From: a virus
Taxonomy: Duplodnaviria; Caudoviricetes
Virus record (IMG/VR): IMGVR_UViG_3300017913_000448
Span: 1 to 25,747 of that record
Reading direction: 5' to 3' (one strand)
DNA: 25,747 nucleotides
Shown: positions 13,328 to 21,794 of the stretch, one piece after another
Numbering within the stretch: the first letter of the stretch is position 1
Layout: every line of letters begins with the position of its first letter
Made by a program: the position numbers and the translations under genes
The notes under the pieces: generated by a model
What the model was told of the DNA's origin: nothing
Databases searched by the model: none
What the model saw: the letters and a program-made list of their open reading frames with translations, nothing else

Positions 13328-13993
13328 TTAACCATATGTCGAGCCAGTTTCGACCGCTACGAAATAGCGCAAGTCGACCTTGGTAGATGTAAACAAACCA
13401 TAGCGAGGTGTTAGTTTCACGTTATATGCACCAGGTAGCATCTTCAGATTTTCAGTTTTGAATACCATCTTGAATGGTGTATCTGAAGTGTGGTCAACTT
13501 CAACATCATAACTATTTGATGTATCGTTTTTGATGTCGGATGCTTTAACGATAGTTGGACCAGAACCAGTGCTTTCGACTACGATGTCTGGCGCACCAAG
13601 AACTGCGGCACCACGGAGAACCTCTGCCAATGTTTGTGCAGAGATTTCAAACTCAACATCTGCATCTGTTGGTAGGTCTTTGTCTGGTGGTGAAATTACC
13701 ATGCTCTCATCAGCATAGAAATATTTGATTTTTGATTTACCGTTACCAACTACAACTGAATTTGTACCGAAGTCAAATTCTGCATTCTCTTGGAATAGTG
13801 ATACTGCACCCAAGAATTGGTTCAAATCATAGATGGCGAAATCGCTATCGAAATTTTCAGGAACAGAACATTCTGCGAGAATGTTTTTCTGACCACTGAT
13901 TGTACGAAGGCGATTGCCCGTCTTCACCGCAATGCCAGTGTTGATTGTTGAAAAGTTCTTCAACACTGTCAAGGTTTCATTACTAATTTTCAT
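13328..13993 (-). CDS. 45: Sliding clamp (gp45)
   Basis: MKISNETLTVLKNFSTIN, FAIYDLNQFL, ENLKMLPGAY. Confidence 0.95.
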   Translation of the reverse strand: MKISNETLTVLKNFSTINTGIAVKTGNRLRTISGQKNILAECSVPENFDSDFAIYDLNQFLGAVSLFQENAEFDFGTNSVVVGNGKSKIKYFYADESMVISPPDKDLPTDADVEFEISAQTLAEVLRGAAVLGAPDIVVESTGSGPTIVKASDIKNDTSNSYDVEVDHTSDTPFKMVFKTENLKMLPGAYNVKLTPRYGLFTSTKVDLRYFVAVETGSTYG

Positions 13994-14421
13994 ACTTTAT
14001 CTCCAGTAAATTTAGTTGCTCTTTCAAGTTGAGTTTCAATCCACTTTGCACATTCTTTAGCAGTCATTGCTTCATCTTTTACAGGTGGAAGTCGGTCGTC
14101 TTGACCAATCTCTCTAATCACAGATGCAGTCAGCATCATAGCAGAGGACATAATCAAGGCAACGTGCGGCAAACCCGAACCGCCTTCAGCATCGTCATAT
14201 TCACGACCACGCTCAAAGTCTTCAATGTGTCTTTTCAGGCTATCAATCATTTGTTGCCAGGGCAGACCCTTTTCCCAATTTCGATTATCATATTTTTTCG
14301 CACCATATTCAAGTGCGGCGGCACCTGCCGCCAAAGCCTCAAGGGGCAACTGGCGAAAATAGGGAACACCAATGCATTCCCTCATCGCTCCAGTTTCAGA
14401 TTTATTCCATTCTTGCATCAT
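13990..14421 (-). CDS. dATP/dGTP diphosphohydrolase domain protein (DUF5664-like)
   Basis: ETGAMRE, YGAKKYDNRNWEKG, SLKRH, GLPHVA; start revised to ATG 14421 after AAGGAG. Confidence 0.8.
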   Translation of the reverse strand: MMQEWNKSETGAMRECIGVPYFRQLPLEALAAGAAALEYGAKKYDNRNWEKGLPWQQMIDSLKRHIEDFERGREYDDAEGGSGLPHVALIMSSAMMLTASVIREIGQDDRLPPVKDEAMTAKECAKWIETQLERATKFTGDKV

Positions 14422-14428
14422 ATCTCCT

Positions 14429-15616
14429 TTAGAATGGTGCATATTCACCATCTTCAGTTTTAGGTGTTTCGGCTGTCTCACCTTCAGCGGTCATCGCCCC
14501 GCCATCCACTTTAGTGTAGAGGTCGAGGAAAGACTGCTTGGTATCAGCATCGAAACGGTTCACACAAAGTTCGATGGCTTTCATTTTGTCACCGAAGATT
14601 GAGTAGGCTTTCGCAATGTGAACCAGACGGCGAGTTGCGATAATCTCATCAACACCACCTTCATAGAACGTCTTACGAATGATATCAGCCCAGTCAATCA
14701 ACTTGCCGATGAATTCATCATCATTCAGTGACAGGCTATCGAACACCTTCTTCAGGATTTTCTTTTCAACAGCATTGCTGGCATACTCTTGCTCAACAGT
14801 AATTGGGAAACGCTCAAGGAACGCTTCATCAAGGATTTGAGCGGCGATGAAACGACCGTCATCAGAACCCTTACCTTTAGTGTTAGCAGTGGCAACAATG
14901 TTGAACCCTGGAGCAGGATGAATAACTTCACCCGTCTTCTTATTGATGTAAGGCTTACCTTCTGCAATCGCCTGAAGCGCAAGCAACTTGTTAGAGCCAC
15001 GGTCAATCTCATCAAGGACAAGAACCGCACCCTTACGCATTGCATTCAGAACAGGACCTTCACGATAGACAACATTGCCATCGACAAGAGTGTTACCACC
15101 GATGAGGTCATCTTCATCAGTCTCGATTGAGATAGAGATTTTAATCATCTCACGGTTAGAAGCGGCACAGGCTTGTTCGACCATGAAAGTCTTACCGTTA
15201 CCAGAGAGACCAGTCACAAGAACTGGGTAGAACATCTTAGAAACAAGAATGTTCTTCAGGTCATTGAAGAAGCCGAAAGGCACATAAAGTGGGTCTTTCT
15301 CTGGGACAAAGTTCTTTGTCACAGTCTCGGTAATGGCTTGTGTCATAGGAACGACCTTTGCAACTGGTTGTAAGTTCATAGTGGTATCAACTACGGGAGC
15401 AGTTTGCTCACCAGCAATTCGATACATGCCTCGACCAACACGGGTCTCTTTATTTGTATAGATGAAGCGAGGACGGGCGGCACCCATCTCTTCAGCAAGG
15501 TCTACAATCTGTTGCTTGGTCACAACTGGACCGAACTTTTCAACAGCGGCTTCAACAAAGGCAGCCTGGGTAGAAGTTAGATTTTTCATAATATATTCTC
15601 CTTTCAGAGGGTTCAA
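14429..15616 (-). CDS. CobS/MoxR-family AAA+ ATPase
   Basis: GLSGNGKT, EDDLIGG, LDEIDRG, ATANTKGKGS, AFLERF; true start may be MKNLTST a few codons downstream. Confidence 0.9.
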   Translation of the reverse strand: MNPLKGEYIMKNLTSTQAAFVEAAVEKFGPVVTKQQIVDLAEEMGAARPRFIYTNKETRVGRGMYRIAGEQTAPVVDTTMNLQPVAKVVPMTQAITETVTKNFVPEKDPLYVPFGFFNDLKNILVSKMFYPVLVTGLSGNGKTFMVEQACAASNREMIKISISIETDEDDLIGGNTLVDGNVVYREGPVLNAMRKGAVLVLDEIDRGSNKLLALQAIAEGKPYINKKTGEVIHPAPGFNIVATANTKGKGSDDGRFIAAQILDEAFLERFPITVEQEYASNAVEKKILKKVFDSLSLNDDEFIGKLIDWADIIRKTFYEGGVDEIIATRRLVHIAKAYSIFGDKMKAIELCVNRFDADTKQSFLDLYTKVDGGAMTAEGETAETPKTEDGEYAPF

Positions 15617-15647
15617 ATTGTTGGACTCTCACCAACTCACAATACAT

Positions 15648-15675
15648 ATATTAACAGGTTCGAAATATATGTCAA
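15648..15675 (-). promoter_or_regulatory. Sigma70-type promoter TTGACA-16-TAATAT
   Basis: Minus strand TTGACATATATTTCGAACCTGTTAATAT preceded by two phased A7 tracts. Confidence 0.75.
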
Positions 15676-15697
15676 GGCTTTTTTTGGCTTTTTTTGG

Positions 15698-17860
15698 TTA
15701 AGCCGCAACTTTTTCCATTAGTCGGTTCAGAAGAACTCGGTTCGCTGTTTTCGCATTTGAAGCCTTCATAAATGCGCTACGAATTTTTGCTTTTGAAGCG
15801 TCGGCATCAACTTTCAGACCTTCATCAGTTCCAGTCAACATATCATCTCCACCAGGGAGTAAGAAGTAACTGTCATAACCAGCATTGTTCAGTTCTTTGA
15901 ACTTAGTTTTACGAAACTCACGGACATCAGCATTCCAGACACCGAACCGAGCGAATGCGCTACGAATTTCACGAGGGCGATTATCAACGATAAAGAAGCC
16001 AATCGTATTCACACCACAACGGTCTTTGATTGCTTTAATAAGGGCTGTAGTCAAAGTGTCAGTAACTTTGTAAGTCTTCTTGGTCACAGTGTCCTGCATA
16101 AAGCAGTCGGTGCGATATGAATTGCGATAGTAACTTACATGTCCCTCTGAATAATATTCACAAGGCGCTTTCTGAACACCACACTGATGGCTCTCACCAT
16201 CTGACAGAACTACAAAGTTCACAATCTGAGCCTTTGTCTTCTGACGGAACTTTTTGATAATCGCAGGTGCCATCAGCAATGCATCATCAAGAGGAGTACC
16301 GCCCAACTGCATCTGTTGTGGAATGTTCATACGATAGTAACGACCATTCTGAAGAGACTGTCGAACCAGCATCATGTTTTCAAGTTGCTGATTGAAATCT
16401 GCAAGGCTCATGTTTGTATCGAACAAACAAGCAAGACCTGGGTGACGGTCACCAACACAAAGTTCATCATTCGCAAACTGCTTTTCTTTAATCTGAAATT
16501 CTGTACTCGGAATGTGGTCGCTGAACATGTATGCCTCGAAAGGAATTTTAACTTTTCGACAGAAGACAACGAGGTTCAACAACTGGTCGATTGTAGCCGC
16601 CATGTTTGGTGCCATTGAACCAGACCAATCGATGTACATCACAAAGCCGTGGTTCTTACCACCTTGAACTGTCGCAACTTTTTTGAACAGGTCATCGTTG
16701 AACTTGTAACCGAAAACTTTTTTCATATCAAGTTCACCAGTCTTTGAAATCTGAACACGCTTGAATTCATCAGCCTTCTTACGCATCTCAAATTCTTTGA
16801 CCATGTAGTTGATAATCTTCTGGTTGTTTGCACGCCACTCTTTAGTCTTTTCAGCAACTTCAACTTTGTGAGAAGAAAGCAGATTTTCGTTACTCGCAAA
16901 CCATTCAATCACTCGCTTGTAACCGATAACACGGTCAGAGTAGTCATGGTCACCGAAGGTAACATATTCAACTTCACGACCATCTTGCTTAGTTAGTTGA
17001 CCTTCGTTGGCTCGCTGAGTTTCATCAGTATCACCACCCATCAATTCTTCGGCATCAACAGGCATCTCATCGATTTCTTCATCATCGAATTCATCATCCC
17101 ATTCATCACCGTAACCAGCGTCTTGGCTCTCTTCATCACCAGTGGCATCAGTAGGAGCAGGAGCAGAGTTTTGATTTTCTTCTTCTTCACCGTCATCATC
17201 ATTCTGACCATCGGTGTCAAACTCTTCACCTTCTTCATCATCACCAGCCTGACCAGACTGCTTTTGCTCTTCAGCCTCTTGCTCTAATTGCTCTTCGGCT
17301 TTTTCTTTTTCAGCCGCAAACAATTCTTCAGTCAGAGCCATGACCTCTTCGAAAGTATCAGTAGCACCAATCTTTTCAATCCATTCAGCCTCTTCTTCAT
17401 TGAACTGAAGATTTACAAGAGTACCGAGTTTGAAGTGAAGGTTAATTCTGTCGATGAAAGGCAATGCTTGAATGTCTTGACCACGCAAACCGAAGAAGTC
17501 CATATCAAGCAATTCTTTGTAGCCGTTGCGATATGCACCAGCAAGACCAGGGTACTTGAGTTTGATTTTCTTTTCGATGCGGGCATCTTCAACAATGTTC
17601 AAGAATGTTTTGAACTTGGGACCGTTAGCACAAACAGCGTCATGCCAGCCTTCTTCAGGCGTCCACAATGCGTGACCAACTTCGTGGCTAGTCATCAAAT
17701 CGTAAATATTGACGCTCAAGTCTTCTTTGAGAATAGGCAACGTCAACACACGGTTCTTAACATCGAAAGAAGCAGTTTGCGTCTTTTTATGCTGAACTGT
17801 GATGTTTTCTGTCGCCATCAACTTGGCTAACTGAGACTTTGTATTCGCTAAATTCATCAT
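15698..17860 (-). CDS. Metallopeptidase-like (HExxH) + acidic linker + VWA protein (CobT-like partner of the AAA ATPase)
   Basis: HEVGH and NIVEDARIE; D/E-rich linker; MIDAS DWSGSM, GGTPL, LSDGES. Confidence 0.85.
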   Translation of the reverse strand: MMNLANTKSQLAKLMATENITVQHKKTQTASFDVKNRVLTLPILKEDLSVNIYDLMTSHEVGHALWTPEEGWHDAVCANGPKFKTFLNIVEDARIEKKIKLKYPGLAGAYRNGYKELLDMDFFGLRGQDIQALPFIDRINLHFKLGTLVNLQFNEEEAEWIEKIGATDTFEEVMALTEELFAAEKEKAEEQLEQEAEEQKQSGQAGDDEEGEEFDTDGQNDDDGEEEENQNSAPAPTDATGDEESQDAGYGDEWDDEFDDEEIDEMPVDAEELMGGDTDETQRANEGQLTKQDGREVEYVTFGDHDYSDRVIGYKRVIEWFASNENLLSSHKVEVAEKTKEWRANNQKIINYMVKEFEMRKKADEFKRVQISKTGELDMKKVFGYKFNDDLFKKVATVQGGKNHGFVMYIDWSGSMAPNMAATIDQLLNLVVFCRKVKIPFEAYMFSDHIPSTEFQIKEKQFANDELCVGDRHPGLACLFDTNMSLADFNQQLENMMLVRQSLQNGRYYRMNIPQQMQLGGTPLDDALLMAPAIIKKFRQKTKAQIVNFVVLSDGESHQCGVQKAPCEYYSEGHVSYYRNSYRTDCFMQDTVTKKTYKVTDTLTTALIKAIKDRCGVNTIGFFIVDNRPREIRSAFARFGVWNADVREFRKTKFKELNNAGYDSYFLLPGGDDMLTGTDEGLKVDADASKAKIRSAFMKASNAKTANRVLLNRLMEKVAA

Positions 17861-17978: not shown

Positions 17979-18662
17979 TTATTTTATTGCGATAGCACCG
18001 ACAAAGAGATGATTTTGCCAGAATGTCTGAACACTTTCAAATCCTGCAACTTCTAACATTGTGTTCAACTCTGACCAAGTGTTTGGTTTCAACAGATTTC
18101 TCAATGTCTGTTCTTTGTCCATAATATCTTTTGCTTCGAAATTTTCACGTTTGAAATCGTAGTACATGAATGTCAGCATGTCCTGAACTTTTGGACTACA
18201 TGAATATGTCTTCTCTGCAAAGATGAAAGCACCACCTGGGTTCAATGCGTCATAGACATTATTCAGAACATCTTGTCTATCTTTGCGTGGCATGAACTGT
18301 AGTGTAAAGATAGAGGTGATAAGAGATGCGTTTTCCATCCATGCATCACGCACATCTTTCTGTACTAGTTCAAGATTGTCTTTGACATAATCTGCCATAC
18401 GCTTACGCATATCATTGACAAATCCATCTGCATACTCATAGCCATAGTAATTACAGTGAGGTGCAAATTCTCTGTTTTGGTCAATCATCGCCGCAAGCGT
18501 TTTACCTGTCGAACAACCTAAGTCATAAACATTCGTATCATCTTCAACGAAATACCGAGACATTTTCACAATGTCATCATGTAGTGTAGAGTAACCTCTA
18601 ATTGATTGGTCGATATGATTATCGAAACCCTCATCACGGTGTGCAAATGTAAAATCAGCCAT
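17979..18662 (-). CDS. cmoA: Carboxy-S-adenosyl-L-methionine synthase-like protein
   Basis: VYDLGCSTG, ENASL, FTLQF, LNPGGA..AEK, DFKR, AGFE..FWQ all track E. coli CmoA as I recall it. Confidence 0.85.
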   Translation of the reverse strand: MADFTFAHRDEGFDNHIDQSIRGYSTLHDDIVKMSRYFVEDDTNVYDLGCSTGKTLAAMIDQNREFAPHCNYYGYEYADGFVNDMRKRMADYVKDNLELVQKDVRDAWMENASLITSIFTLQFMPRKDRQDVLNNVYDALNPGGAFIFAEKTYSCSPKVQDMLTFMYYDFKRENFEAKDIMDKEQTLRNLLKPNTWSELNTMLEVAGFESVQTFWQNHLFVGAIAIK

Positions 18663-19797
18663 TGTTAAAACCTTTCAATACGTTTTCGTATATTGAACCT
18701 GCTACTGCTTTGTACATCAAAGGAGCAACGGCTCGCCCTAGTCGTTCAACCTGTTGGTCAAACTCACCTGTCAATTTATAATCTTCTGGAAAGCCCATCA
18801 AACGGATGCATTCTTTCACTGTCAGTTTTCTATTTTCAGAAGGATGAAAAACTCCACTCATTCCTCTCTTCTGACCTTGTTGTGTAAGGGTCGGGCTTGG
18901 CAGATGCGGTGCTGGTCTAATCATATTAAAACAAGATGCTTTCGGGTTCCAAGAACGGAACTGTGGGTCACTCGGTTTTGTATGTTTCTTAGGGTTAAAG
19001 GGAAGTGGCTCTAAGAACTTCTTCTGAAAAGAATTTTGTACAAAATCAAGGAGCATCTCGACCTCTTTCGGGTCGTTTTCAATATCAGCAATGGCATCGC
19101 CAAGCCCTATATGAGCCTCCACTGTTCTCTTTGGAAAGAGTGAGTGAAGGTTCAAAAATGATAGACCAACAGCATCACATACGTCATCACGAACACAGAT
19201 AAAAATCGTTCTCTCTCGTGCTTGAGGTACTCCGTAATCTGCGGCATTCAATACTTCGTATGTGACGCTGTAGCCTATCTTTTCAAACTCATTGACGAAT
19301 GCATTCAACTTTCCTCGTGCTTCACCAAACGTAATTCCTTTTACGTTCTCTGCTACGATTACTTTCGGTTGAACTTCTTCAGCAATGCGAATGAATTCAT
19401 AAAACAAGTCTTCGATTGCGACTTGCATTTTTCCGTCCGAATATGACTTCTCTTTGCCCCATCCCTTTTCTCGCTTTCCTGCAACTGAGAAAGCACTGCA
19501 AGGAGGTGAGCCGTCAAGTATGTCGAGTTCGCCCTTGGCAACTCCCGCCATATCAAGGAAATCTTGTCCTGTGTACTGTTTGATATCATCGACTAATACC
19601 TTTGTATCAGGGAAGTTAGCAGTATAAGTTTCAACTGCCGCCTCAACAAACTCATTGATTAGAAGAATATTACCACCAGCAAGACGATAGCCTGTAGAAC
19701 TACCACCGCCGCCAGCAAAGCAACTAATCGCCGTAAACTTTTTTGCTTCCGATGCTCTTCTAACATCATCGACATAATATTTTTCATATCTCATCAT
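18655..19797 (-). CDS. C5-cytosine DNA methyltransferase homolog, predicted carboxymethyltransferase
   Basis: Motif I FAGGGG, IV GSPPCSAFS, VI ENVKG, VIII QARER, IX RLMGFP, X LGRAV (N to R). Confidence 0.9.
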   Translation of the reverse strand: MMRYEKYYVDDVRRASEAKKFTAISCFAGGGGSSTGYRLAGGNILLINEFVEAAVETYTANFPDTKVLVDDIKQYTGQDFLDMAGVAKGELDILDGSPPCSAFSVAGKREKGWGKEKSYSDGKMQVAIEDLFYEFIRIAEEVQPKVIVAENVKGITFGEARGKLNAFVNEFEKIGYSVTYEVLNAADYGVPQARERTIFICVRDDVCDAVGLSFLNLHSLFPKRTVEAHIGLGDAIADIENDPKEVEMLLDFVQNSFQKKFLEPLPFNPKKHTKPSDPQFRSWNPKASCFNMIRPAPHLPSPTLTQQGQKRGMSGVFHPSENRKLTVKECIRLMGFPEDYKLTGEFDQQVERLGRAVAPLMYKAVAGSIYENVLKGFNNG

Positions 19798-19845: not shown

Positions 19846-19852
19846 ATGTCAA
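19824..19852 (-). promoter_or_regulatory. Sigma70-type promoter TTGACA-17-TAGTAT upstream of the MTase-cmoA pair
   Basis: Minus strand TTGACATCCGCAGAAAAGTGTGTTAGTAT; the -35 overlaps the upstream TGA stop. Confidence 0.7.
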
Positions 19853-20655
19853 GCAAAAAGTTGATTATCTATATCAATCCAGTCACGAACCAAATCCATA
19901 GTTCGAATTCTGTTTTTGTAATTCAATTCTTTATCTTCTAATAGCGTTTCAAAATGTTCTGGAATACCTGCGACAAGTTGAAGATTTGCGTGTCTACGTC
20001 TCTTAGGCATTTGCTTAAATTCTGGGTAGTCATTTACAATAGGTGCTTTCTGAAAAGGTTTATTAAAGAAATCCCAGTCGTGTTCCATCATATAATTTGC
20101 AACAGAACAACGAACATAAGGTGCAACTAGATTTGCTTCAATCTCTTCTGCAAGTTGCTCTTGCTGTCGAATACCTGCGGGATTCTCTGCACCAAAGTAT
20201 TGAGTACGAAACTCATCGAATAATTCTTTTGTATGTTTGTAATGCATATTCGCTTTCTTCGATACGCCATACCAACCATCTGCGGCAACGCCTGACAGAA
20301 CGTGCTTCTCTTTGATTTTTGGGTAGACATAGAGAAATGGAAATGTGCATTCAACATGTGTCTTTTTCTTGCAATCGTAATATCTCATTAGGCGCAAGAA
20401 ATCATCTTTCAAATTGTTGACAGGAACATCAATCTCGTGATGGTCCCAACCGTAAATCTCTGCGGCTGTTCTAGCCGTTAGATTGTCATCATTGTCAACA
20501 CCGTTGACTTTCATCGTGTATGTGTGAACTTTCTTACCTAATCTCATTGCTGAGAAAGCACAGGTCATGCTATCGATACCGCCAGACATAAGCACAGCAA
20601 CATCGTCAGATGGTGCTTCGTTGCGAATGATTTCTGTAATAATATTTGCAATCAT
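19849..20655 (-). CDS. Asparagine-synthetase-like (PP-loop) ATP-dependent amide ligase lacking a glutaminase domain
   Basis: LMSGGIDS PP-loop, VLSGVAADGWYG (compare AsnB LSGEGADE.FGG), APY. Confidence 0.8.
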   Translation of the reverse strand: MIANIITEIIRNEAPSDDVAVLMSGGIDSMTCAFSAMRLGKKVHTYTMKVNGVDNDDNLTARTAAEIYGWDHHEIDVPVNNLKDDFLRLMRYYDCKKKTHVECTFPFLYVYPKIKEKHVLSGVAADGWYGVSKKANMHYKHTKELFDEFRTQYFGAENPAGIRQQEQLAEEIEANLVAPYVRCSVANYMMEHDWDFFNKPFQKAPIVNDYPEFKQMPKRRRHANLQLVAGIPEHFETLLEDKELNYKNRIRTMDLVRDWIDIDNQLFA

Positions 20656-21083
20656 ATCTTCTCAACTTTCAGACCACACTTTTCTAAAAAGTCAATTCCG
20701 TCTCTACTTCTATATCCATTTTTATAGTAAACTGCACCGATGCCCGATTGATATATCAACTTAGCACAATCAATACAGGGTGCATGAGTTACAAAAAGCG
20801 TAGCATCTTTACCACTCTCTGAACTAGATGCTAGTTTTGCAATCGCATTGGTTTCTGCATGTAACACTTCTGGTTTAGATTTATACAACAATGAACCAAC
20901 TTCATCTTGTCCAACTACATCTTCACAGTTATTATCCCAACCGCTAGGCATACCATTATATCCAATCGATATAATTCTGTTATCTTTCACAATCACACAA
21001 CCGACCTGTAGCCTCTTAGCAGATGATAATTCTGCATAGACTTCTGCTACCTTCATGTGTGCGATTATGAACTTTTGTTTCAT
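20652..21083 (-). CDS. cd: dCMP deaminase
   Basis: GYNG, HAETNAI, PCIDC zinc motifs. Confidence 0.92.
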   Translation of the reverse strand: MKQKFIIAHMKVAEVYAELSSAKRLQVGCVIVKDNRIISIGYNGMPSGWDNNCEDVVGQDEVGSLLYKSKPEVLHAETNAIAKLASSSESGKDATLFVTHAPCIDCAKLIYQSGIGAVYYKNGYRSRDGIDFLEKCGLKVEKI

Positions 21084-21460
21084 ACAGGAACGCCTTCAAC
21101 TCGACCTGAGATATAGTCACGAACTACTACTGCCCAATCATTTGTATATTCGACTTCCCAATCTGGTGCAGGATATTGTGCATTTTTTTTTTTTTTTGCA
21201 TCACGAAACTCTGGGCAAACCCAATACATTTGATAATCTTCTTGTTCGTTCATATATGAGATTTCATATACTCTTTGGTCAAATGAACTGAAGACAATTG
21301 AGAAGTTACCTTCCCAGTCCAGATATCGACCCATTGGATAAACATCACGCCAGCCATGTTCTTCACCACCTGTAATATTGTATCCTACTTGTTCAAACAC
21401 ATCTTTCACTTTTGGGTGTTGTGTGTCTTTGTTACTAACAGCCATTGTTTTCATCCTCAA
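21080..21460 (-). CDS. Hypothetical phage protein containing an A15 run; start possibly at MAVSNK
   Basis: 126 aa ORF coupled to cd by ATGA overlap. Confidence 0.7.
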   Translation of the reverse strand: MRMKTMAVSNKDTQHPKVKDVFEQVGYNITGGEEHGWRDVYPMGRYLDWEGNFSIVFSSFDQRVYEISYMNEQEDYQMYWVCPEFRDAKKKKNAQYPAPDWEVEYTNDWAVVVRDYISGRVEGVPV

Positions 21461-21794
21461 AATTAAATTCTATTTGTTCTTCTCCGGGTTGTTCTAGTGC
21501 ATTAGCAATTCCATCTTGAATTGCTTTCAGAACACCAATCTGAAAGTACCCTTGCGCTTCTTGGTCAGATAAATCAACAGTTTTTGTCGCTGGACTACTC
21601 ATACCTTTGTCAACCCAATCATCCCATTCATCTTTTCTGACAACAACATACTTTTCTTCTAATTCTTCAAGTGCAACTCTTATACCTTGTCGAATAAACA
21701 AAGAAGTCATCTCTTCATTCATTTCAAAGTGTACGATGGCACCACCGTCTTCTTGGTCTACTACATCCAAAACCTGAATTGATTCCTTATCCAT
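21435..21794 (-). CDS. Hypothetical acidic protein
   Basis: 119 aa ORF, TAATG-coupled to the gp46 stop. Confidence 0.75.
   Translation of the reverse strand: MDKESIQVLDVVDQEDGGAIVHFEMNEEMTSLFIRQGIRVALEELEEKYVVVRKDEWDDWVDKGMSSPATKTVDLSDQEAQGYFQIGVLKAIQDGIANALEQPGEEQIEFNFEDENNGC

Follow-up and report, generated by a model that had tools for sequence, protein, structure and literature searches.

We found that a gene of an uncultured T4-like phage encodes what is very probably a CmoX-type enzyme, in which an arginine at the position of the motif X asparagine of C5 cytosine methyltransferases (Arg355) is predicted to hold the carboxylate group of carboxy-SAM; the enzyme would then likely transfer carboxymethyl, and not methyl, groups to the cytosines of phage DNA. 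The gene lies in a window of 25,747 nucleotides, the whole stretch of DNA analysed here, which makes up an entire IMG/VR virus record, a genome fragment with an estimated completeness of 14%. For the protein encoded in the window, the data presented below show which residue is present, how it aligns, that the cofactor contacts are conserved, that the gene is linked to its neighbours and that the arginine is kept across the family.

The system itself, the role of the residue and its use as a search signature have already been published (Yang et al., Nat Commun 2025, PMC12783734), in a study dated December 2025 that combines survey, structure and mutagenesis. The deduction made in the preliminary description of this DNA is correct, though not new. 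Our literature search for a natural CmoX, 5cxmC or 5gcxmC system returned no paper besides that one.

The cmoX homologue and its neighbours

The open reading frame of 380 amino acids that we name the cmoX homologue occupies positions 18655..19797 on the minus strand, and its translation includes QQVERLGRAVAPLMY. It belongs to the C5 cytosine methylase family (PF00145, E 2.9e-60, profile positions 1-323 of 324) and scores 177.6 bits against TIGR00675, for which the cut-off is 100.65. Its annotation as a DNA cytosine C5 (carboxy)methyltransferase homologue is based on PF00145, the match to the structure 8YF3, the identity to the enzyme of Synechococcus phage S-B43 and an AlphaFold2 (AF2) model. 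The preliminary description had proposed that an arginine replaces the motif X asparagine in a C5 methyltransferase whose catalytic PC, ENV and QxRxR motifs are intact, and both observations are borne out. The plus strand at 18727..18738 reads AACGGCTCGCCC, corresponding on the minus strand to GGG CGA GCC GTT and thus to G-R-A-V, with the codon of Arg355 at 18733-18735; the assignment to motif X relies on the translation and on the alignments to N304 of HhaI, to HaeIII and to R350 of SpCmoX.

The remaining motifs were all found at verified coordinates on the minus strand. Motif IV, S-P-P-C (S97-P98-P99-C100, 19498..19509), carries the catalytic nucleophile Cys100, aligns to S95-C98 of SpCmoX and is invariant in our alignments A1 and A3. 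The same invariance was observed for motif VI, E-N-V (E150-V152, 19342..19350), and for Q192, R194 and R196 of motif VIII, Q-A-R-E-R (19210..19224). The N-terminal cofactor-binding region (19585..19719, minus strand) comprises F27, within an FAGGGG stretch whose coordinates were verified as 19702-19719, together with E49, F50 and D71, and aligns without gaps to F25, E47, F48 and D69 of SpCmoX; the four residues are invariant in A1 and A3.

The cmoX homologue is flanked by two genes on the same strand. Directly downstream lies cmoA (17979..18662, minus strand, 227 amino acids), a carboxy-SAM synthase homologue whose start overlaps the stop of cmoX by 8 nt (ATGGCTGA), an arrangement of translational coupling. 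Its product is 53% identical to SpCmoA (E 9e-87), and along its entire length it matches 4GEK, the structure of E. coli CmoA (E 1.8e-31). The best family is TIGR00740, matched over the full length with an E value of 1.9e-39 and a score of 135.8 bits that stays below the cut-off of 193.3; the score against NF011995 is likewise below its cut-off (117.7 against 285 bits).

The third gene, cmoY (19849..20655, minus strand, 268 amino acids), is located 51 nt upstream of cmoX and encodes a homologue of asparagine-synthetase-like ATP-dependent amide ligases (PF00733, E 1.9e-15, residues 18-154), 48% identical to SpCmoY over 261 residues (E 6e-87). Its PP-loop, SGGIDS (residues 24-29), was verified at 20569-20586 on the minus strand; the PP-loop residues are conserved, and many residues are invariant, among 11 homologues. 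With 268 amino acids, the protein has no room for a glutaminase domain, and SpCmoY is likewise an asparagine-synthetase-type PP-loop domain devoid of it (Supplementary Table 1 of PMC12783734).

All the large genes of the window are on the minus strand and are of T4-like phage type, as determined by a family profile search of 28 large ORFs. They include DNA polymerase B, the gp45/gp44/gp62 clamp and clamp loader, RegA and a UvsX-like RecA, along with a DnaB-like helicase, a gp46-like SMC ATPase, Hsp20, a ferredoxin and a 2OG-Fe(II) oxygenase. The DNA polymerase shares no more than 52% identity with its counterparts in cultured cyanomyoviruses. Furthermore, the cmoY-cmoX-cmoA block gave no megablast match in 50,697 phage records, a set from which its own or a very near genome was possibly left out. 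Among the phage records searched, the closest cultured relatives of the three-gene block are detectable at the protein level only.

Arg355 and the carboxy-SAM contact of SpCmoX

The arginine does align with the motif X asparagine: residues 318-366 of the window protein match residues 267-315 of M.HhaI without a gap (phmmer), placing R355 on N304 in FGNSV. R355 was also aligned by phmmer to the asparagine of GNAV in M.HaeIII. The best Protein Data Bank match of the protein is 8YF3 (phmmer, E 7.2e-110, residues 7-375), the 1.9 Å structure of SpCmoX (PMC12783734), in which the GRMV motif aligns with GRAV of the window protein and R350 corresponds to R355. All six SpCmoX residues named in that paper (F25, E47, F48, D69, C98 and R350) are kept, as F27, E49, F50, D71, C100 and R355.

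The AF2 model, built on 19 sequences, has a mean pLDDT of 87.4, and its top Foldseek match is 8yf3 (E 8.5e-40, TM 0.94, target-normalised), entitled 'DNA cytosine C5-carboxymethyltransferase in complex with Cx-SAM'. The next matches are M.HhaI and DNMT1/MET1, the comparison with M.HhaI giving an E value of about 1e-20 and a TM score of 0.78 (HhaI-normalised).

SpCmoX of Synechococcus phage S-B43 is a DNA cytosine C5-carboxymethyltransferase that makes 5-carboxymethylcytosine from carboxy-SAM (PMC12783734). In its structure, Arg350 stands in place of HhaI Asn304 and directly contacts the carboxymethyl group, while F25, E47, F48 and D69 contact the adenine and ribose of Cx-SAM. The wild-type enzyme accepts carboxy-SAM as its sole cofactor, and the R350N variant is inactive with both cofactors (PMC12783734). 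The substitution therefore does not convert the enzyme into a methyltransferase, which indicates that the arginine is necessary and is not a simple switch. The direct contact, the cofactor exclusivity and the loss of activity in R350N all support the earlier proposal that the arginine salt-bridges the carboxylate of carboxy-SAM, and Arg355 would be expected to do the same. Since Arg355 is aligned to the arginine that holds carboxy-SAM in an enzyme 52% identical to it, the window enzyme likely writes carboxymethylcytosine.

An engineered enzyme points in the same direction. In a later paper by the laboratory that engineered the variant (PMC13288465), a cationic side chain at N374 of M.MpeI is described as the one that best supports carboxy-SAM use, rationalised as a salt bridge, and the Discussion of PMC12783734 states that the SpCmoX arginine 'strikingly mirrors' the engineered M.MpeI N374K. 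Both sources agree with the preliminary description, which had stated that N374K enables M.MpeI to use carboxy-SAM. The equivalence of the SpCmoX arginine position with M.MpeI N374 is taken here from the Discussion of PMC12783734. With phmmer, 4DKJ (M.MpeI) aligned over residues 90-220 of the window protein only, leaving the C-terminus without alignment, and it was absent from the matches of a C-terminal search with the window protein.

Distribution of the motif X arginine and limits of the signature

The arginine is conserved throughout the family and is not a chance substitution. It was present at the motif X position in 80 of 80 IMG/VR relatives sharing 47-84% identity with the window protein (75 GRMV and 5 GRAV), and an alignment of 19 sequences (mean column identity 58%) shows no other residue there. 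Among the best 150 representatives of 50%-identity clusters, drawn from 1.84 billion proteins, 143 cover the position and carry Arg (110), Asn (23), Leu (4), Asp (2) or Lys, Tyr, Gln and Met (1 each). Arginine in 110 of 143 of these best representatives indicates that the Arg form is a large family, with the window protein well inside it.

The co-occurrence of GR(A/M)V methyltransferases with cmoA, which had been put forward as a check, was observed in two scans of IMG/VR. In the first, cmoA was present in the fetched locus of 65 of the 80 Arg-type relatives and was not in the fetched DNA of the other 15, many loci being cut by contig ends; a cmoY-like gene was found in 49 of the 80 loci, 5 of these 49 being weak matches (22-27% identity). 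The second scan added 61 locus ids, which include contigs fetched more than once, and 57 covered the position. Arginine was read in 56 of these 57 and leucine in one, with cmoA accompanying 39 of the 56 Arg-type genes and absent from the fetched DNA of 17. Four Arg-type contigs without a nearby cmoA were searched whole: one has cmoA about 11 kb away, and the gene was not found on the other three, which are fragments (5-19% complete). As cmoA is missing from some Arg-type loci and contigs, we consider the linkage strong but not absolute.

A similar association is found in cultured phages, where 67 records hold a CmoA homologue (E <= 1e-10) versus 1,065 with any C5-methyltransferase match. The S-B43 group and S-CRM01 have a GRMV methyltransferase with cmoA adjacent, and in Pseudomonas phage PaBG a GRSV methyltransferase gene adjoins cmoA and an asparagine synthase gene. 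In Erwinia and Dickeya jumbo phages, cmoA and cmoY are about 15-17 kb from the C5-methyltransferase gene; among these jumbo phages, the reading of the arginine, in GRICV, comes from Dickeya phage AD1 alone.

The relatives with other residues at this position differ in their neighbours too. We did not find cmoA in any of four Asn-type loci (GNSV, 40% identical), which are short (2.2-6.7 kb). Leu-type relatives are represented by Methylophilales phage Melnitz, whose methyltransferase (GLMV) shares 43-45% identity with the window protein, and by locus L139, and in both the methyltransferase gene is followed by a Tet_JBP dioxygenase gene; cmoA was not found in the complete 141-kb genome of Melnitz-3. 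This pairing fits the phage methyltransferase-TET systems that act on GpC (Burke et al., PNAS 2021, PMC8256090).

Queries of IMG/VR with the single representatives P0051 (GNMV) and P0012 (GLMV) returned no relative, and a mixed Asn/Leu alignment query retrieved almost only Arg-type loci and one Leu-type locus. With the Lys-type (P0019) and Asp-type (P0080) representatives as queries, the relatives retrieved were all Asn- or Arg-type.

The published survey used the SPPC motif together with R350 as a search signature and obtained 5,615 CmoX candidates across IMG/VR v4, UniProtKB and MGnify; the contigs concerned also carry 4,257 CmoA and 2,251 ligase genes, CmoA being present on most of these contigs (PMC12783734). 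The sample numbers of the contigs of four close relatives of the window protein do not occur in the source-data spreadsheet of that paper.

GRAV had been suggested as a searchable signature, and the arginine does track cmoA, but not all cmoA-linked methyltransferases possess it. In Staphylococcus phages vB-SscS-F1 and SPbeta-like, a HhaI-like C5-methyltransferase gene (E about 1e-25) lies directly beside cmoA, accompanied in vB-SscS-F1 by a cmoY-like gene. Both proteins read GGVI where HhaI has GNSV, with glycine in place of the arginine, according to a MAFFT alignment and a HMMER alignment that was continued manually from the conserved AY shortly before this motif. They lack SPPC as well as the arginine, and the filter used in PMC12783734, whose main text makes no mention of Staphylococcus, would therefore miss them. 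The signature thus misses some probable carboxymethylases of this Gly-type, cmoA-adjacent kind, and the lack of a motif X arginine does not exclude carboxy-SAM use. On these alignments, we conclude that the arginine is a good positive signature and not a universal one.

Proposed pathway and comparison with known systems

By homology to the S-B43 system, we infer cofactor use, target motif, amine identity and biological role for the window enzymes. In the proposed pathway, CmoA would supply carboxy-SAM, made from SAM and prephenate; its counterpart SpCmoA is a highly active carboxy-SAM synthase (PMC12783734). CmoX would then flip a cytosine out of the DNA, probably in a GC motif such as the one SpCmoX requires (PMC12783734), and Cys100 would attack C6. 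While Arg355 holds the carboxylate of the cofactor, the C5 carbanion would take the carboxymethyl group, giving 5-carboxymethylcytosine. The window contains 993 GC dinucleotides, with an observed/expected ratio of 0.99, and sites would consequently be plentiful if the target specificity is that of SpCmoX. Finally, CmoY would activate the new carboxyl group by adenylation and couple it to an amine, most likely glycine. Such a pathway would yield a hypermodified cytosine, predicted to shield the phage genome from restriction. In S-B43, the asparagine-synthetase-like SpCmoY joins glycine to the carboxyl group, the resulting glycine amide 5gcxmC was found in phage DNA, and DNA treated with SpCmoX resists HhaI restriction (PMC12783734).

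The arginine could in principle be tolerated in an ordinary SAM-dependent 5-methylcytosine methyltransferase, next to which cmoA would stand by coincidence. The catalytic motifs of C5-methyltransferases are indeed all intact, and cmoA is missing from the fetched DNA of some Arg-type relatives. On the other hand, the closest characterised enzyme takes carboxy-SAM and not SAM (PMC12783734), the residue is arginine in every one of the 80 relatives, 65 of which have cmoA in their locus, cmoX and cmoA overlap by 8 nt in the window, and the Asn- and Leu-type relatives examined have no cmoA. We regard this reading as highly improbable. Even less probable, in our opinion, is that the phage CmoA serves the modification of wobble uridines in tRNA (cmo5U), as it does in bacteria, the methyltransferase being functionally unrelated to it. 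Modification of tRNA is the best-known function of CmoA, and in a fragment 14% complete a cmoB gene or other consumers of carboxy-SAM may be elsewhere in the genome. Against this, none of the 28 large ORFs scanned in the window gave a CmoB-like family match, and S-B43 has no CmoB (PMC12783734). Moreover, cmoA, cmoX and cmoY are linked in at least three gene orders, which argues for one pathway and against a separate role in tRNA modification.

A different question is which amine CmoY would attach to the product of a carboxy-SAM-dependent CmoX. Were it not glycine, the final base would differ from 5-glycylcarboxymethylcytosine, and this reading, compatible with the main explanation, is the sole route to something new in this system. 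Its arguments are that CmoY is 48% identical to SpCmoY and that the gene order is cmoY-cmoX-cmoA here as against cmoA-cmoY-cmoX in S-B43. However, the largest ligase cluster of PMC12783734, formed around the glycine ligase, was drawn at about 30% identity, so that a ligase sharing 48% over 261 residues would be placed within it, and many CmoY residues are invariant among the 11 homologues. We therefore consider another amine unlikely, and lean towards glycine as the final one. A narrower version, in which the GRAV subclade, in phages far from cultured cyanophage, produces an amide of 5-carboxymethylcytosine that is not the glycine adduct already published, draws on the 48% identity of CmoY to the glycine ligase and on Ala356, which stands for Met beside the carboxylate-binding arginine. 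It appears more doubtful still; if it were true, the phage DNA would contain a base not yet described.

With carboxymethyl transfer by a CmoX-type enzyme as the preferred reading, the replacement of the motif X asparagine by arginine represents a residue-level determinant that would turn a methyltransferase scaffold into a carboxymethyltransferase, and it makes phage 5-carboxymethylcytosine systems recognisable from sequence. The gene described here is probably one more divergent CmoX member, carried by an uncultured T4-like phage. To the published work, our analysis adds an independent check that the arginine tracks cmoA, the observation of Asn-type sister enzymes without cmoA and of Leu-type ones paired with a TET dioxygenase, and the caution that the signature is not exhaustive, given the glycine in cmoA-linked Staphylococcus phage enzymes.

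Among known systems, the closest is that of S-B43. Over 97% of its length, the window protein has 52% identity to SpCmoX (tblastn), and the two share the fold and length class, the SPPC, ENV and QxRxR motifs, the motif X arginine and the four cofactor-contact residues; both genes belong to T4-like phages and are linked to cmoA and cmoY. The two differ in that SpCmoX has GRMV and the window protein GRAV, Ala356 in place of Met being found in only 5 of the 80 relatives, and in an 8-residue insertion after motif IV that is present in SpCmoX and missing from the window protein. The gene order also differs, being cmoA-cmoY-cmoX in S-B43 and cmoY-cmoX-cmoA in the window. In addition, the window phage is distant, its polymerase being no more than 52% identical to those of cultured cyanomyoviruses.

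In M.MpeI N374K, from the Kohli laboratory, a cationic side chain placed close to the group that is transferred enables the use of carboxy-SAM (PMC12783734 and PMC13288465), as is predicted for the window enzyme. However, its lysine was engineered into a CpG-specific Mycoplasma enzyme, whereas the natural enzyme has arginine and SpCmoX targets GpC. M.HhaI and M.HaeIII have the catalytic motifs and the fold in common with the window protein, and motif X aligns without gaps, but they carry asparagine (GNSV and GNAV), use SAM and show no linkage to cmoA, while the window protein has arginine. Finally, the TET-associated C5-methyltransferases resemble the CmoX group as phage enzymes that act after replication and are GpC-directed where tested. 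The TET-linked relatives identified here differ in having leucine (GLMV), no cmoA and a dioxygenase partner, in contrast to the arginine and cmoA of the window system. In the TET-linked systems, to which Melnitz is likened by its Tet_JBP neighbour, 5mC serves as a handle for oxidation, whereas the CmoX-type enzyme of the window would provide a carboxymethyl handle.

Genes flanking the cmo block

On the minus strand of the window, the start of cmoY is overlapped by 4 nt (ATGA) by a dCMP deaminase gene (20652-21083), itself preceded by two small ORFs (21080-21460 and 21435-21794; 126 and 119 aa) for which we found no Pfam match. The genes on the other side (13990-14481 and 14429-17860, minus strand) encode a protein matching PF18909, the N-terminal domain of dATP/dGTP diphosphohydrolase (E 7.6e-22), then an AAA_5/CbbQ-like ATPase and then a 720-aa protein. 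The latter, located directly upstream of the cmo block, carries a long acidic stretch and matched neither Pfam nor NCBIfam.

Arg-type enzymes and their possible carboxy-SAM supply

Some IMG/VR contigs, namely L088 (at 4977 and 6122), L089, L090 and L099, have a single cmoA beside a tandem pair of Arg-type CmoX paralogues, which share about 50% and about 62% identity with the window protein. Such pairs may represent two target specificities. In Moraxella phage Mcat8 (L004:2945-5145), a ParB_N protein gene is followed by an Arg-type methyltransferase (GRMV in motif X) and a class-I methyltransferase with weak CmoA likeness (20% identity, E 2e-6), which may be a divergent carboxy-SAM synthase. 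The ParB association is recorded in PMC12783734.

For the Arg-type CmoX genes (GRMV) of loci L117, L122 and L129, no cmoA was found inside the fetched flanks (full or near-full 5-kb). These enzymes may be served by the host CmoA, as SpCmoX of Synechococcus phage S-B43 could be in E. coli, or by a cmoA elsewhere in the genome.

Relatives lacking the motif X arginine

HhaI-like C5-methyltransferases with an adjoining cmoA were found in Staphylococcus phages vB-SscS-F1 (L149:5950-8468), which additionally has a cmoY-like gene, and SPbeta-like (L150:5947-7646). Their motif X reads GGVI where HhaI has GN(304)SV, and GSPC replaces SPPC. Both are probably carboxy-SAM users without the arginine, and the published filter requiring SPPC and R350, the SpCmoX counterpart of Arg355 in the window protein, would overlook them.

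Leucine occupies this position (GLMV) in two C5-methyltransferases, one from Methylophilales phage Melnitz-3 (L003:3501-5685) and one from locus L139 (2233-4331), each followed by a Tet_JBP dioxygenase gene. Since these enzymes are 43-45% identical to the window CmoX, neighbour a Tet_JBP gene and, in the complete Melnitz-3 genome, occur without cmoA, CmoX appears to be sister to the phage methyltransferases that are associated with TET.

Among close family representatives, the Arg355 position is also held by Tyr (P0025, GYAV), Gln (P0126, GQSV), Met (P0141, GMSV), Asp (P0080 and P0138, GDAV) and Lys (P0019, GKSV). The Asp form would be expected to repel a carboxylate and might use another cofactor. 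The Lys form corresponds, as a natural variant, to the N374K change engineered into M.MpeI.
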